This document shows, piece after piece, positions 4,309 to 56,419 of a stretch of 64,000 bases of DNA. Origin of the DNA: Minisyncoccia bacterium (GTDB lineage: Bacteria > Patescibacteriota > Minisyncoccia > Phycocordibacterales > UBA9973); contig JBGATK010000005.1 of assembly GCA_044229265.1 (NCBI GenBank), positions 14,963 to 78,962 of the forward strand, given 5' to 3'. The notes beneath the pieces are model-generated. The model was not told the DNA's origin. It saw only the letters and a program-made list of their open reading frames with translations, and searched no databases. Within the stretch, counting starts at the first letter, position 1, and each line of letters starts with the position of its first letter. A program made the position numbers and the translations under genes.

Positions 4309-5166
4309 CTATAATCCTTCTTCTTTTAGCTTTTCGAGTAATTCTTTAGCTTTATTTGAGATTTTGTGCGGGAGCTTGATATGGATTTTTACATACAAAT
4401 CCCCTTTTGTACCTTTAAAAACAGCTTCGCCTTTGCTAGACATTTTCAAAGTCTCACCACTATGCACACCAGCTGGTACTGGAATAGTTATTTCTTCAGT
4501 TTTTTTCAAAATTCCTTTTCCTCTGCATTCATCACAAACTTCTTTTGGAATTTCACCAGATCCAAAACAATAATCGCATAAACGAGTATTATTTATATTG
4601 CCGAGTATAGTTCTTTTAACTTCATGAATTTTTCCTTTGCCGCCGCAAGTTTTACAAGTATCCATCTTACTACCCTTTTTTGCACCACTACCACTACAAT
4701 TATCACATTCACTATTTTTTGTAACTGTAATTTTTTTATTTACACCGAGTATTGCTTCTGTAAAAGATATATTTATTTCAGTTTGCAAATCTCTTCCGCG
4801 ACGAGATTGCGCACGAGAGCCGCCACCGAAAAAGTCTGAAAAAATATCATTGAGGTCAAATTCTATTCCGCCCCCCTGACCAAAGCCACCGCCAAAGTCG
4901 AAGCCTTCAAAACCACCAAAGCCACCGCCTTGATTTGATCCACCACCCATATTTGCGTACTGCGAGCCAAATCTGTCGTACTGAGCGCGTTTTTGGTCAT
5001 CAGAGAGGGTCTGGTAAGCTTCATTTGCTTCTTTGAATTTAGTTTCATTGCCTTCCTTTTTGTCAGGGTGATACTTGTGGGCGAGCTTATAAAACGCTTT
5101 TTTAATTTCGTCTTTAGTGGCTCCTTTATTTACACCTAAAATTTGGTAATAATCTTTATTACTCAT
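4309..5166 (-). CDS. dnaJ: Chaperone DnaJ (compact form)
   Basis: J domain (DYYQILGV...HPD), Gly/Phe-rich region, four CxxCxGxG zinc-finger repeats and a C-terminal GDLYVKIHIKLP motif. It is about 90 aa shorter than canonical DnaJ. Confidence 0.8.
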   Translation of the reverse strand: MSNKDYYQILGVNKGATKDEIKKAFYKLAHKYHPDKKEGNETKFKEANEAYQTLSDDQKRAQYDRFGSQYANMGGGSNQGGGFGGFEGFDFGGGFGQGGGIEFDLNDIFSDFFGGGSRAQSRRGRDLQTEINISFTEAILGVNKKITVTKNSECDNCSGSGAKKGSKMDTCKTCGGKGKIHEVKRTILGNINNTRLCDYCFGSGEIPKEVCDECRGKGILKKTEEITIPVPAGVHSGETLKMSSKGEAVFKGTKGDLYVKIHIKLPHKISNKAKELLEKLKEEGL

Positions 5167-41517: not shown

Positions 41518-42747
41518 ATGCACAATCCATTTGAGAATGCCATGGCTCAGCTAGACAAAGTAGCTAAAATAAAAGACTTTGGTAGTGAATTTATAAACCA
41601 ACTACGTGCTCCAAACCGCGACATACGGATTTCTATCCCTGTAAAAATGGACGATGGCACTCAAAGGATTTTTGAAGGCTACAGAGTGGAATATAATGAC
41701 GCTCTTGGACCTTACAAGGGTGGCATTCGTTATCACTCTCTAACTGAAATCAACGAAGTCAAAGCTCTTGCTTTTTGGATGGCTATCAAATGTGCTGTAG
41801 CTGGCATACCTATGGGTGGAGGCAAAGGTGGCATTACTGTTGACCCGAAAGATTTATCCAAAGCTGAACTAGAAAGACTTTCTCGTGGCTGGGTAAAAAG
41901 ACTTTATGAAATACTTGGGCCACATAAAGATGTGCCTGCGCCGGATGTGAATACTACTGGTGAGATAATGAACTGGATGAATGATGAATACATGAAGCTC
42001 TCTGGCGAAAAAACTCTCGCTACTTTTACTGGCAAACCCCTTAGCTCTGGTGGATCAGAAGGCCGTGAGAGTGCTACAGGCCTCGGAGGATACTATGTTT
42101 TTAAAGCTCTGCAAGAAAAACTAGGCTTACCAGAAAAATGCTCTGTAGTTATACAAGGCTTTGGCAATGTAGGCTCTTTTGCCATGAAAAGCTTTGTAAA
42201 TGGAGGACATAAAGTCATGGCTATCTCAGACTCTAAAGGTGGAGTTTACAGTGAAGCTGGGCTTGATTTTGAGGCTTTGGTGGCACACAAAAAGGCTACA
42301 GGGTCGCTCGCAGACTATCCTGGTGCAAAAAATGTAAGTAATGAAGAACTGCTCGAAATACAGTGCGATGTGCTCGTGCCAGCAGCTTTTGAAAATCAAA
42401 TTACAGATAAAAATGCAAATAATATAAAAGCTAAAGTAGTGCTAGAACTTGCAAATGGTCCAACCACACCAGAGGCTGATGAAATACTATCTGGTAAGGG
42501 TATCGCTGTGATTCCTGATGTGCTCGCGAATTCTGGTGGAGTAACTGTCTCGTATTTCGAATGGGATCAAAATTTAAAAAATGAAAAATGGAATGAAGCT
42601 GATGTAAATATCAAGCTAGACGAAATCCTAAAAGATTCTGCAAGTAAAATTTTTGATATTTCAAAAGAACACAATACTACCCTGCGCAACAGCGCTTTTA
42701 TACTAGCCCTCGACAGAATTAAAGCAAAAACCCCGACGCATTTATAA
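41518..42747 (+). CDS. gdhA: Glutamate dehydrogenase (Glu/Leu/Phe/Val dehydrogenase family)
   Basis: KCAVAGIPMGGGKGG catalytic Lys/Gly-rich motif and NAD(P) GFGNVG motif. Confidence 0.9.
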   Translation: MHNPFENAMAQLDKVAKIKDFGSEFINQLRAPNRDIRISIPVKMDDGTQRIFEGYRVEYNDALGPYKGGIRYHSLTEINEVKALAFWMAIKCAVAGIPMGGGKGGITVDPKDLSKAELERLSRGWVKRLYEILGPHKDVPAPDVNTTGEIMNWMNDEYMKLSGEKTLATFTGKPLSSGGSEGRESATGLGGYYVFKALQEKLGLPEKCSVVIQGFGNVGSFAMKSFVNGGHKVMAISDSKGGVYSEAGLDFEALVAHKKATGSLADYPGAKNVSNEELLEIQCDVLVPAAFENQITDKNANNIKAKVVLELANGPTTPEADEILSGKGIAVIPDVLANSGGVTVSYFEWDQNLKNEKWNEADVNIKLDEILKDSASKIFDISKEHNTTLRNSAFILALDRIKAKTPTHL

Positions 42748-42779
42748 AAATGGTCGGGGAGCCGACTTAAACGTCGGCT
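42731..42779. repeat. CCCCGAC-family GC-rich double hairpin (copy A)
   Basis: CCCCGAC-(15 nt)-GTCGGGG immediately followed by AGCCGAC-TTAAAC-GTCGGCT. Overlaps the last gdhA codons and ends 10 bp before the GIY-YIG start. Confidence 0.6.
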
Positions 42780-42788
42780 TGTAATATA

Positions 42789-43049
42789 ATGCCGTGTGTT
42801 TATATATTAAAAAATAAAAATGGAAACTTTTATATAGGTAGCACTATCAATTTAGAAGTTCGTATAAAGCAACACTTATCAGATTATTGTAAAACAACAA
42901 AAAGATTGGGTGCCTACGAGCTGGTATTTCATCAAAATTATGAAAATATAAAAGATGCTAGAAGAATTGAATATAAATTAAAACAATTGAAAAGAAAGGA
43001 TTATATTGCTAATATAATAAAAGATGGTTTTATTAAGATAAAACCATAG
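42789..43049 (+). CDS. Small GIY-YIG nuclease family protein
   Basis: MPCVYILKNKNGNFYIGSTINLEVRIKQH... contains GIY(x10)YIG with a conserved Arg and Glu. 86 aa. Paralogous to 55364..55642. Confidence 0.8.
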   Translation: MPCVYILKNKNGNFYIGSTINLEVRIKQHLSDYCKTTKRLGAYELVFHQNYENIKDARRIEYKLKQLKRKDYIANIIKDGFIKIKP

Positions 43050-43052
43050 TTT

Positions 43053-43125
43053 GGGCGGTTAGCTCAGTTGGTAGAGCGCAATATTGACGTTATTGATGTC
43101 AGAGGTTCGAATCCTCTACCGCCCA
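43053..43125 (+). tRNA. tRNA-Val (anticodon GAC)
   Basis: Acceptor GGGCGGT/ACCGCCC, D-arm GCTC-AGTTGGTA-GAGC, anticodon stem CAATA/TATTG, loop TTGACGT, T-arm AGAGG-TTCGAAT-CCTCT. Starts 4 nt after the GIY-YIG stop. Confidence 0.75.
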
Positions 43126-43197
43126 CTAGAATTGTAATTAGCGGTTTATTCAAAACAAATAGCTTATCGCACACAGAAAATATGCTACTATAAGGAT

Positions 43198-55298: not shown

Positions 55299-55373
55299 TG
55301 GTGCCGGGGGTGAGAATCGCACTCACGACCTATCCCTCTTCAGGGGAGAGCTCTACTACTGAGCTACCCCGGC
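55299..55373 (-). tRNA. tRNA-Phe-like (anticodon GAA), non-canonical features
   Basis: Minus-strand sequence GCCGGGGTAGCTCAGTAGTAGAGCT CTCCC CTGAAGA GGGAT AGGTC GTGAG TGCGATT CTCAC CCCCGGC A CCA. CCA is encoded. There is a C-U mismatch at 27-43, G at position 37 and G at T-loop position 55. Confidence 0.6.
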
Positions 55374-55642
55374 ATTTTTATTTTAACAAAACCATCTTTT
55401 ACTATCTTCTCTATGTAATCATGTCTTTTAAATTTTTTCAACCTTTTCTCAATATATCTTACCTCACTCAATGTTTCAAATTTTTGTGAAAAAACTAATT
55501 TTAATTTTCCCATCTTACTGGTTGAAGGTGTATAACCTCCATTATGATGCCTAATTCTTTCATCTATATCAGTAGTGCTACCTATATAGTAATTCCCCTT
55601 TTCACTTTGTAATATATATACGTATGGCATATATTTTAACAC
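55364..55642 (-). CDS. Small GIY-YIG nuclease family protein (paralog of 42789..43049)
   Basis: MPYVYILQSEKGNYYIGSTTDIDERIRHH..., ending in KDGFVKIKMPG. The last three codons and stop overlap nt 1-10 of the tRNA. An alternative start at 55630 gives MPYVYIL, as in the paralog. Confidence 0.8.
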   Translation of the reverse strand: MLKYMPYVYILQSEKGNYYIGSTTDIDERIRHHNGGYTPSTSKMGKLKLVFSQKFETLSEVRYIEKRLKKFKRHDYIEKIVKDGFVKIKMPG

Positions 55643-55644
55643 TG

Positions 55645-55698
55645 AGCCCCGACGCTTTCGGTCGGGATCCCGACTTTACGTCGGGGCTACCCCGGCAT
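55645..55698. repeat. CCCCGAC-family nested palindrome (copy C) plus a 13-bp duplicate of the tRNA 5' end
   Basis: AGCCCCGAC-GCTTTCG-GTCGGGA|TCCCGAC-TTTAC-GTCGGGGCT, then GCTACCCCGGCAT (55686-55698), which is identical to 55363-55375 at the tRNA 5' end. Confidence 0.6.
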
Positions 55699-55712
55699 AT
55701 ATGAATAATAGA

Positions 55713-55958
55713 TTAAGGCACTAAATCTTTTAATTTTTGAAAAGATGAATTGGTTTCTTTTACTGTGTTTTGCAATTGCTCTACAAAAGGTTGTAGAAAA
55801 TAAAAAGTACCAACTGAAACACCTACAATCAAAATCCAATAAAAAATCTTAAAAAATAGGTTCCATTTTTGGATGCCTCTTACTTTTTTAAGCATTTCAT
55901 TGTTCTCTTTTACTAATGCTAAAGTTTCCTCTAGCATTTGCTTTTCTTCTGTATCCAC
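55713..55958 (-). CDS. Small membrane protein, unknown function
   Basis: 81 aa with an N-terminal coiled/charged region and one hydrophobic helix. Confidence 0.35.
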   Translation of the reverse strand: MDTEEKQMLEETLALVKENNEMLKKVRGIQKWNLFFKIFYWILIVGVSVGTFYFLQPFVEQLQNTVKETNSSFQKLKDLVP

Positions 55959-55982
55959 TCAAATATATTATCATAAAGAATT

Positions 55983-56013
55983 AAAAAAGCCAACTTGGGT
56001 ATTTGGCTTTTTT
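55983..56013. terminator. Bidirectional hairpin terminator
   Basis: AGCCAA-CTTGGGTAT-TTGGCT flanked by AAAAA and TTTTT. Confidence 0.45.
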
Positions 56014-56053
56014 ATGTTAAATTATATAAGGTTTTTTATTGTTTCGCCCTCAT

Positions 56054-56095
56054 AGCCCCGACGTAAAGTCGGGGAGCCGACAAGTATCGTCGGCT
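56054..56095. repeat. CCCCGAC-family double hairpin (copy B), solo copy upstream of tRNA-Arg
   Basis: AGCCCCGAC-GTAAA-GTCGGGG followed by AGCCGAC-AAGTATC-GTCGGCT. Same architecture as copy A. It ends 15 bp before the tRNA 5' end. Confidence 0.6.
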
Positions 56096-56110
56096 TTCAA
56101 TAGACAAAGC

Positions 56111-56182
56111 GTCCTTGTAGTTAAATGGATATAACTTCCCCGTCCTAAGGGGACATTGCAGGTCCGATTCCTGCCAAGGACA
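56111..56182 (+). tRNA. tRNA-Arg (anticodon CCT)
   Basis: Acceptor GTCCTTG/CAAGGAC, D-arm GTTA-AATGGATA-TAAC, anticodon stem TCCCC/GGGGA, loop GTCCTAA, T-arm GCAGG-TCCGATT-CCTGC (C at position 55). No CCA encoded. Confidence 0.7.
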
Positions 56183-56185
56183 CAA

Positions 56186-56419
56186 TTAGACTCCCAAAAG
56201 ACTCGATATTTTTTGTTTATCAAAACCTACGATTAAATCATTCTCTATAAGTATAACTGGCACGCCTAACTGGCCGGATTTTTCTACCATTTCTTTGCGT
56301 TTATCCATATCACTCGCTACATCGTGCTCGGTATAAGCTACATTGTTTTCTTTAAAGAACTCTTTCGCCATTTGGCAAAAATGACAACTAGGTGTGGAAT
56401 ATATTGTTACGTTTTTCAT
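56186..56419 (-). CDS. Glutaredoxin/NrdH-like thiol-disulfide protein
   Basis: 77 aa with CHFC active site and a thioredoxin fold (TIYSTPSCHFCQMAKEF). Confidence 0.75.
   Translation of the reverse strand: MKNVTIYSTPSCHFCQMAKEFFKENNVAYTEHDVASDMDKRKEMVEKSGQLGVPVILIENDLIVGFDKQKISSLLGV

Follow-up and report, generated by a model that had tools for sequence, protein, structure and literature searches.

The 64-kb window analysed here (64,000 nt, the whole of the stretch presented, from contig JBGATK010000005.1 of the Minisyncoccia bacterium assembly GCA_044229265.1) belongs to an AT-rich, Paceibacteria-like chromosome and carries three copies, designated A, B and C, of a doublet of adjoining hairpins with a CCGAC...GTCGG core. 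Copy B lies directly upstream of an intact tRNA-Arg(CCT) gene, and its hairpins interrupt a decayed duplicate of a tRNA-Arg 5' end: u(1-10) stands first, followed by the doublet, u'(11-25) and the intact tRNA, u and u' being the displaced copies of the tRNA positions given in brackets. On balance, B is probably a copy, lacking the open reading frame (ORF), of a selfish DNA module common in Patescibacteria. The interrupted tRNA fragment and the phylum-wide occurrence of the family go beyond the preliminary description of the site, which had reported two hairpins ending 15 nt before the tRNA; these were found exactly there (Table 1), the interval given for them, 56054-56182, taking in the tRNA itself.

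The duplicated tRNA 5' fragment

The + strand at 56046-56183 is composed of GCCCTCATAG, CCCCGACgtaaaGTCGGGG, AGCCGACaagtatcGTCGGCT, TTCAATAGACAAAGC and the tRNA-Arg(CCT) gene, in this order. When the two flanks of the doublet were joined, GCCCTCATAG+TTCAATAGACAAAGC matched the tRNA-Arg(CCT) of another genome (L019) at 21/25 positions, including 10/10 in the first ten, and the tRNA-Arg(CCT) of B itself at 17/25; none of 2000 shuffles reached either value. The doublet of B is thus enclosed in a 5' duplicate of the adjacent tRNA with the intact gene downstream, and at most loci of the family, likewise, the doublet is preceded by a copy of the opening 10 nt (or ~16 nt) of the tRNA that lies downstream, while the D-arm continues to its right. 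Positions u(1-7), the tRNA-specific part, agreed fully with those of the local tRNA in 28 of 81 cases (about 33 after correction of one-base ARAGORN offsets), as compared with 0.9% for permuted locus pairs and 6% for tRNAs of the same anticodon at other loci. The insertion points cluster at structural landmarks, namely after tRNA positions 7-8, 10 and 15-16.

At B, L027, L026, L028 and L039, u is closer to another tRNA than to its neighbour. L027 contains two fragment-plus-doublet copies (1436-1492 and 1868-1924; 57 nt, 98% identity) that flank an ORF plus a tRNA and stand before tRNA-Thr genes with GGT and CGT anticodons; as the fragment, GCCGAAGTAG, matches neither tRNA-Thr, fragment plus doublet appear to be copyable as a unit. 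In L054 (1360-1900) the direct repeat around the element spans the last 22 nt of the ORF and tRNA positions 1-16, and downstream of the intact tRNA-Thr there is a partial tRNA copy, from D-loop to anticodon loop, with a doublet in its anticodon loop. A model of integration into chimeric tRNAs, with u native and the tRNA 5' end foreign, was rejected as a general rule, because at every site where u and the intact tRNA differ, perfect pairing with the 3' strand of that tRNA is found for its own 5' end but not for u.

The central puzzle is that hairpin insertion in a tRNA gene regularly comes with partial duplication of the tRNA, usually of its 5' end. A structure-guided cut with staggered nicks, or a circular intermediate bearing the interrupted fragment, would fit these patterns.

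Table 1 Positions of the features of copies A, B and C in the 64-kb window.
Feature	Position	Strand	Remark
u(1-10), decayed copy of tRNA-Arg 5' end, GCCCTCATAG	56046-56055	+	adjoins the hairpins on the left; match tested by shuffling
Hairpin 1 of doublet B, CCCCGAC-GTAAA-GTCGGGG	56056-56074		7-bp stem
Hairpin 2 of doublet B, AGCCGAC-AAGTATC-GTCGGCT	56075-56095		7-bp stem; loop ends in C
u'(11-25), decayed copy of tRNA-Arg D-arm, TTCAATAGACAAAGC	56096-56110	+	abuts position 1 of the intact tRNA
Intact tRNA-Arg(CCT)	56111-56183	+	ARAGORN; Rfam tRNA model, 56.4 bits
Segment of 323 bp	55376-55698	-	present in the window and L313, absent from L314 and L315; bounded by the 13-bp direct repeat GCTACCCCGGCAT
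Copy C doublet	55645-55689	-	R1 match
Copy C left end	55645-55698	-	tRNA-Phe u(1-10) and 2 leader nt, doublet, CTCAGT (tRNA positions 11-16)
Copy C GIY-YIG gene	55364-55627	-	88 aa; stop codon TAG is tRNA-Phe positions 8-10 (overlap 55364-55373)
tRNA-Phe(GAA) downstream of copy C	55299-55373	-	ARAGORN, Rfam
Copy A doublet	42731-42779	+	R1 match; no recognisable tRNA fragment flanking
Copy A GIY-YIG gene	42789-43049	+	86 aa; followed by 3 nt and tRNA-Val(GAC), 43053-43126

The doublet as a repeat family

The resemblance of B to A and C, remarked on earlier from the sequence, proved to be beyond chance. The motif CCCCGAC occurs 7 times in the window against 0.94 expected, and CCGAC-N(3-20)-GTCGG 6 times against 0.11 expected, all 6 within the three copies. 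A covariance model, R1, built from 40 doublets of other genomes and containing no window sequence, had exactly three matches in the window: B, which was the best (51.2 bits, E 3.5e-9) and scored on both strands, C and A. Hairpin 1 of B is the same as hairpin 1 of C, with the loop and the preceding TAG included. Folded as RNA, the B region gave z = -5.5, and as single-stranded DNA each strand took up the double-hairpin fold with an energy of about -16 kcal/mol (z = -4.7 for one and -5.8 for the other).

In the family as a whole the CCGAC/GTCGG core was fixed by the selection of sequences, while the two outer pairs of each stem were left free. These outer pairs covary, being paired in 98.9% with 58 double-change cells as compared with 13 in shuffles, and their pairing collapses once the partners are slid; over 152 sites they are 91-95% paired, as opposed to ~50% one position further out. 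The loops are highly variable (4-25 nt), with a conserved edge: that of hairpin 1 begins with G in 136 of the 152 sites and that of hairpin 2 ends with C in 136. By this pattern the doublet consists of two inverted copies of one asymmetric hairpin and is the same on both strands, and such dyad symmetry suggests a DNA-level element rather than a strand-specific RNA motif. B has all of these features, that is two adjoining 7-bp stems, the invariant core, no spacer beyond the outer pairs, and loops (GTAAA and AAGTATC) with G first and C last.

Dispersed doublets were counted by a pattern scan of metagenome contigs, all counts being among the matches listed, with a doublet called canonical when both stems were of 7 bp. 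Canonical doublets accounted for 41 of 65 matches in low-GC contigs, 5 of 60 matches in high-GC contigs and none of 17 matches in low-GC viral contigs; most doublets had neither a tRNA nor a GIY-YIG gene nearby. A viral origin was dismissed, given 0 canonical doublets in the 17 low-GC viral matches among 110 matching stretches listed; the 2 found among 103 matches listed for viral high-GC contigs were taken as chance. Eleven of the 41 fall inside long ORFs, including those of UvrA (L099, in frame at 1564-1606) and GyrA (L192, in frame at 4666-4707), where the encoded peptides are of the type PRRQGVGAPTEAS, a habit shared with Rickettsia palindromic elements. Doublets were also nested in the loops of other doublet copies and placed at helix tips of 23S rRNA (L194, 141-181 and about 330; L103, 1594-1629), in L194 with a 60-nt insertion in place of a 6-nt loop; the rRNA doublets may be the same thing as the short insertion sequences without an ORF that have been described from rRNA genes of the candidate phyla radiation (CPR). 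Taken alone, the doublet is a dispersed palindromic repeat like repetitive extragenic palindromes (REPs) or the Rickettsia palindromic elements (RPEs).

Complete elements with a GIY-YIG gene

Only two genes of the GIY-YIG family are present in the window, those of copies A and C. Their products (86-88 aa) are 49% identical, retain the conserved GIY-YIG residues and consist of one domain, and all homologues of the copy C protein were from Patescibacteria. With a profile of the family, 80 loci were collected, of which 67 had two or more CCGAC...GTCGG hairpins in the 130 nt that precede the ORF and 73 had a tRNA on the same strand within 200 nt downstream, with specificity for Thr, Arg, Phe, Val, Ile, Lys, Asn, Ala, His or Met. 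In 40 of the 80 the stop codon of the ORF is the T8-A9-G10 (TAG) of the tRNA itself, so that a cut by RNase P at the tRNA 5' end would strip the stop codon from the mRNA; such removal may be a built-in limit on expression of the nuclease.

The AlphaFold model of the copy C protein was confident, with a predicted local distance difference test (pLDDT) score of 89.7, and the closest solved structures were those of two UPF0213 proteins, BH0048 and EF2693, together with the nuclease domain of Slx1, which is a structure-specific endonuclease for branched DNA. No additional DNA-binding domain of the I-TevI/SegB kind is present; on this ground, structure-specific action on hairpin or cruciform DNA is the most economical guess.

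Two further features of the loci were assessed. Copying of the ORF start context from the tRNA 5' end was weak (12/73 as compared with 7.7 expected, p = 0.014) and the idea was dropped. Hexamers resembling a -10 box were found upstream of u(1) in 11/42, at plain tRNAs in 13/66, and upstream of t(1), the first position of the intact tRNA, in 5/42 occupied sites, which is suggestive only.

With respect to copy A, the stop codon of gdh (glutamate dehydrogenase), at 42745-42747 within the stretch 42731-42759, lies in the loop of hairpin 1. The context gdh, doublet, GIY-YIG gene and tRNA-Val(GAC) was also found in L013 and L066, there too with no recognisable tRNA fragment.

At B only 15 nt separate the doublet from the tRNA, which makes it an ORF-less relative and not a full member of this set. 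The absence of a GIY-YIG gene, already noted in the preliminary description, extends to degraded remains: hmmsearch --max over the six-frame translation of 55941-56200 gave no remnant (best E 0.94), while copy C, the positive control, was recovered with E 5.6e-49.

These data bear on whether B could be an independent REP- or RPE-like insertion into a dead tRNA-Arg 5' fragment, with no historical or mechanistic link to the GIY-YIG gene and placed where it is because doublets favour the loops of hairpins and the bases of stems. Such a preference would suit the many listed doublets with no GIY-YIG gene nearby, those at 23S rRNA helix tips and in the loops of other doublets, the L054 doublet in the anticodon loop of a partial tRNA copy, and the hairpins of L036, which were inserted separately into a fragment at tRNA positions 7|8 and 16|17. 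Opposed to it are the doublet upstream of 67/80 GIY-YIG genes, the joint change of doublet and ORF of copy C described below, and the fact that hairpin-free tRNA 5' fragments were not seen as a separate class. An insertion of this kind is accordingly considered unlikely.

Presence and absence of copy C among strains

Contigs of related strains, found through an identical glutaredoxin neighbour, are 99.6-100% identical to the window and include assembly GCA_964617005.1; L313 is 100% identical, and L314 and L315 are 99.6% identical over 3.2 kb. The last two lack a segment of 323 bp that contains the copy C doublet, CTCAGT, the ORF and the second copy of tRNA positions -2 to +10 (Table 1). In this empty allele the leader ...catatATGCCGGGGTAG continues straight into a normal tRNA-Phe with no hairpin, and u of copy C is placed exactly where the tRNA begins behind the same leader. 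The indel indicates that the doublet was gained or lost together with the ORF, as one unit. Copy C also displays what is typical of homing endonuclease genes, presence and absence at one site among close genomes.

In a further contig, L082, the allele of copy C is 5% diverged, the upstream DNA is 100% identical and the downstream gene content is different, a pattern that would be the expected product of exchange of the element with co-conversion. L082 has no panD downstream of its copy C allele, Hsp20 being directly next, and its tRNA-Phe (1104-1180) joins a 5' part of the window type to a T-arm and 3' acceptor strand like those of L002, giving a G4.A69 mismatch; the tRNA may have recombined internally, or else the contig, whose coverage is low, is a chimera of the assembly.

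B itself is identical over 138 nt in 6/6 strain contigs, including those that lack copy C.

It had been suggested that B is a landing pad, and as an attachment site the solo fragment-plus-doublet would be a recombination target of the nuclease gene, either unoccupied or vacated. At some loci the ORF does lie between two near-identical fragment-plus-doublet repeats, as expected from integration (L038, 70 nt, 94%; L002, 63 nt; L025; L027), and recombination at such pre-existing copies may represent a minority route. Against it, the empty copy C site is a clean tRNA free of hairpins, which means that a pre-existing landing pad is not required; B is unchanged in the six strains, and none of the tRNA-Arg(CCT) genes surveyed below is occupied. 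A role of B as an attachment site is quite improbable.

tRNA-Arg(CCT) loci in other genomes

Among 15 tRNA-Arg(CCT) genes surveyed, 5, from four lineages, have a solo doublet and 10 have none; a GIY-YIG ORF was found at 0/15. The ORF-less layout of B recurs at the tRNA-Arg(CCT) of L178 and at the syntenic gene of L002, a Nomurabacteria metagenome-assembled genome. At the syntenic site of the close relative L003 there is no doublet, and nine more tRNA-Arg(CCT) genes, the majority within the same block of genes, are likewise empty. Between L002 and B, the stems, the outer pairs and the junction of the hairpins are identical, the loops are unrelated, u differs at 3/10 positions and the protein of the neighbouring ORF81 is only 32% identical to that of the window. 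This identity of stems, together with that of hairpin 1 in B and C, implies upkeep or renewal of the stems alongside decay of the tRNA-like flanks.

In the block of grx, tRNA-Arg(CCT), ORF81, the GIY-YIG gene and tRNA-Phe, the tRNA-Arg of the window, L002 and L003 has the opposite orientation to that of the other genomes compared (L001, L019, L020, L022, L023, L043 and L058); its sequence type is GTCC... in the former three and GCCC... in the other genomes.

Several scans were directed at signals around B. Rfam 15 at gathering thresholds yielded only tRNAs in the whole window, and at E up to 10 nothing credible over the hairpins in 55950-56200. In 55600-56300 no terminator-like site was called by the intrinsic terminator scan, the hairpins of B being followed by TTCAATAG, and promoter-like matches were not above those of shuffles. 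Between ORF81 and B, at 55982-56014, there is an inverted repeat of 12 bp without mismatch (TAAAAAAGCCAA...TTGGCTTTTTTA), bordered on either side by runs of A and T, that looks like a bidirectional terminator; it was not called by the consensus scan because it has too few G-C pairs.

The proposal of a processing or regulatory element for the tRNA can be assessed on this basis. B would then be a functional part of the pre-tRNA-Arg(CCT) 5' leader, involved in processing, stability or regulation and kept by selection at the RNA level. Its position is in line with such a role, as the tRNA lies on one side of it and on the other a promoter-like box, AAATTATAT, that L002 also has, as are the stems shared with L002 despite diverged flanks and loops, the recurrence of solo doublets in four lineages and the fixation of B in the six strains. 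The evidence to the contrary is as follows: 10 of the 15 genes, including that of the close relative L003, do without a doublet; the doublet is dyad symmetric and scores on both strands; the same doublet is found in intergenic DNA, in coding regions (in frame in uvrA and gyrA) and in 23S rRNA; no Rfam family matches; and the flanking tRNA-like fragment is decaying. A leader function is therefore very improbable.

Origin of site B

In the module proposed here, the cis part is the dyad-symmetric doublet of two inverted CCGAC...GTCGG hairpins. In the full form this doublet stands at the left end of a unit of ~320 bp that also includes the gene of an 86-88 aa GIY-YIG protein of the Slx1/UPF0213 type. 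The unit interrupts a tRNA gene in its 5' part, behind position 10 or ~16, and is flanked by a duplication of the first bases of the tRNA; by virtue of this duplication an intact tRNA follows the unit, and the old 5' end (u) is left beside the upstream leader. The nuclease may be structure-specific and act on hairpin or cruciform DNA, be it the doublet or the D-arm region of the tRNA, and so drive insertion, copying or conversion. Of all this, B retains just the doublet and a duplicate of tRNA-Arg positions 1-25, directly next to the intact tRNA-Arg(CCT). B may have been generated in the way that full elements are installed, with the ORF lost afterwards or with a nuclease encoded elsewhere, such as in A or C, acting in trans. 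It would now be a passenger, transcribed in the 5' leader of pre-tRNA-Arg and removed by RNase P, with no dedicated host function.

Several observations weigh against this account of B. As none of the 15 tRNA-Arg(CCT) genes has an ORF-bearing allele, loss of the gene has not been seen there; if the direct repeats of a full element simply recombine, the product is a clean tRNA of the L314 kind and not a solo doublet, so that B needs another route; and neither gain nor loss of B was seen among the six strain contigs. Because most of the metagenome doublets have no GIY-YIG gene nearby, the link between enzyme and element is one of co-location only. In addition, the flanks of B are nearer to the tRNA-Arg of other genomes than to their own, which misfits a plain local duplication.

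Of the earlier suggestion that B is a remnant left after loss of the nuclease gene, the part that stands is the relationship, since a gene-less copy of the nuclease element fits best; the loss itself is one of two candidate routes. The 0/15 count and the clean tRNA left by repeat-mediated loss lean towards an ORF-less origin.

More tentatively, the doublet and the 86-aa Slx1/UPF0213-like GIY-YIG protein could constitute a new class of bacterial mobile element, analogous to REPIN-RAYT but driven by a structure-specific nuclease, with B as a non-autonomous copy made in trans; this is possible rather than probable. Insertion would then take place in genes of structured RNAs, at the tips or bases of hairpins, in the tRNA D-arm, anticodon loops and rRNA helix tips, a tRNA gene that was hit would be regenerated by duplication of its 5' end, and the nuclease that made B would belong to a neighbouring element.

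Implications

If the module is as proposed, a REP-like repeat family gains a candidate dedicated enzyme of an unexpected type, which is a minimal GIY-YIG nuclease and not a HUH transposase. In the streamlined genomes of the CPR a selfish gene would settle at the 5' end of tRNA genes that are essential and single-copy and yet leave them whole, with the tRNA regenerated through target duplication, and it may make use of the tRNA promoter. One repeat would tie together the CPR rRNA insertions, the in-frame peptides of uvrA and gyrA and the odd tRNA leaders of one phylum. For copy C both the empty and the occupied allele are known, which makes the substrate of the nuclease directly testable. Annotators should expect pseudo-tRNA 5' fragments and palindromes of 40 nt upstream of Patescibacteria tRNAs.

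Comparison with known systems

A tRNA-linked module of hairpins and a GIY-YIG gene was not described in the published full texts searched, and the module is apparently undescribed. No precedent was found for the combination, while its ingredients have precedents, namely palindromic doublets, free-standing GIY-YIG genes near tRNAs, and duplication of gene fragments next to mobile endonuclease genes.

SegB of phage T4, a free-standing GIY-YIG homing endonuclease, resembles the present family in that its gene lies among or next to tRNA genes, and in the presence or absence between related genomes with co-conversion of flanks; SegB recognises a conserved tRNA motif, the TpsiC arm (PMC2330249). It differs, as does I-TevI, in that the proteins described here have only the catalytic domain, of 86-88 aa and Slx1/UPF0213-like, and in that the element has hairpins and a target duplication. 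Copies A and C both lack the combination of nuclease and DNA-binding domain that marks the I-TevI/Seg type.

The non-intron insertions in CPR rRNA genes (Tsurumaki et al. 2024, PMC11270868) come from the same phylum and likewise affect genes of structured RNAs, where the tops and bases of stem-loops are the most usual sites; GIY-YIG proteins are encoded by some of them, while many are short and have no ORF. The main text of that paper, in contrast to the present focus, has 0 occurrences of tRNA, hairpin or palindrom.

Double-hairpin elements (DHEs) or GC clusters of fungal mitochondria are set apart from the family by the bacterial host of the latter, by unrelated sequences, and by its systematic tie to tRNA 5' ends and to one GIY-YIG family. 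DHEs were reportedly observed, by Paquin and co-workers in 2000, also within other DHEs and beside mobile endonuclease ORFs. They share with the doublet two adjoining GC-rich hairpins, AT-rich genomes and a location in intergenic DNA and rRNA genes, and are considered potentially mobile (PMC10085805, PMC2800124).

The CGTC-tagged REPs and Rickettsia palindromic elements (Di Nocera et al. 2013, PMC3733652) are similar in their head-to-head dimers, in insertion within other palindromes and in in-frame copies in genes for replication and repair, uvrA among them; the CGTC REPs have no known transposase dedicated to them (PMC3733652). The CGTC motif is present in the doublet as well, as CCGACG/CGTCGG. 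In the CGTC REPs, however, it is at the foot of a stem of 8-9 bp that starts with A-T pairs, whereas here it is at the loop side of a 7-bp stem with a CCGAC core, variable loops and a co-located candidate enzyme.

REP/REPIN (BIME)-RAYT systems differ in the enzyme, a HUH/Y1 transposase in place of the GIY-YIG gene co-located here, and in the GTAG tag, which the doublet does not have; in the present family, furthermore, the enzyme gene is multi-copy and lies at tRNA 5' ends with fragment duplication, and the host belongs to Patescibacteria. The likeness is in the architecture: in both cases short GC-rich palindromes are arranged as inverted doublets that can fold as two hairpins or one long one, each genome has numerous copies of them, and the gene they flank encodes a candidate for a dedicated enzyme (PMC3337134, PMC3116915).

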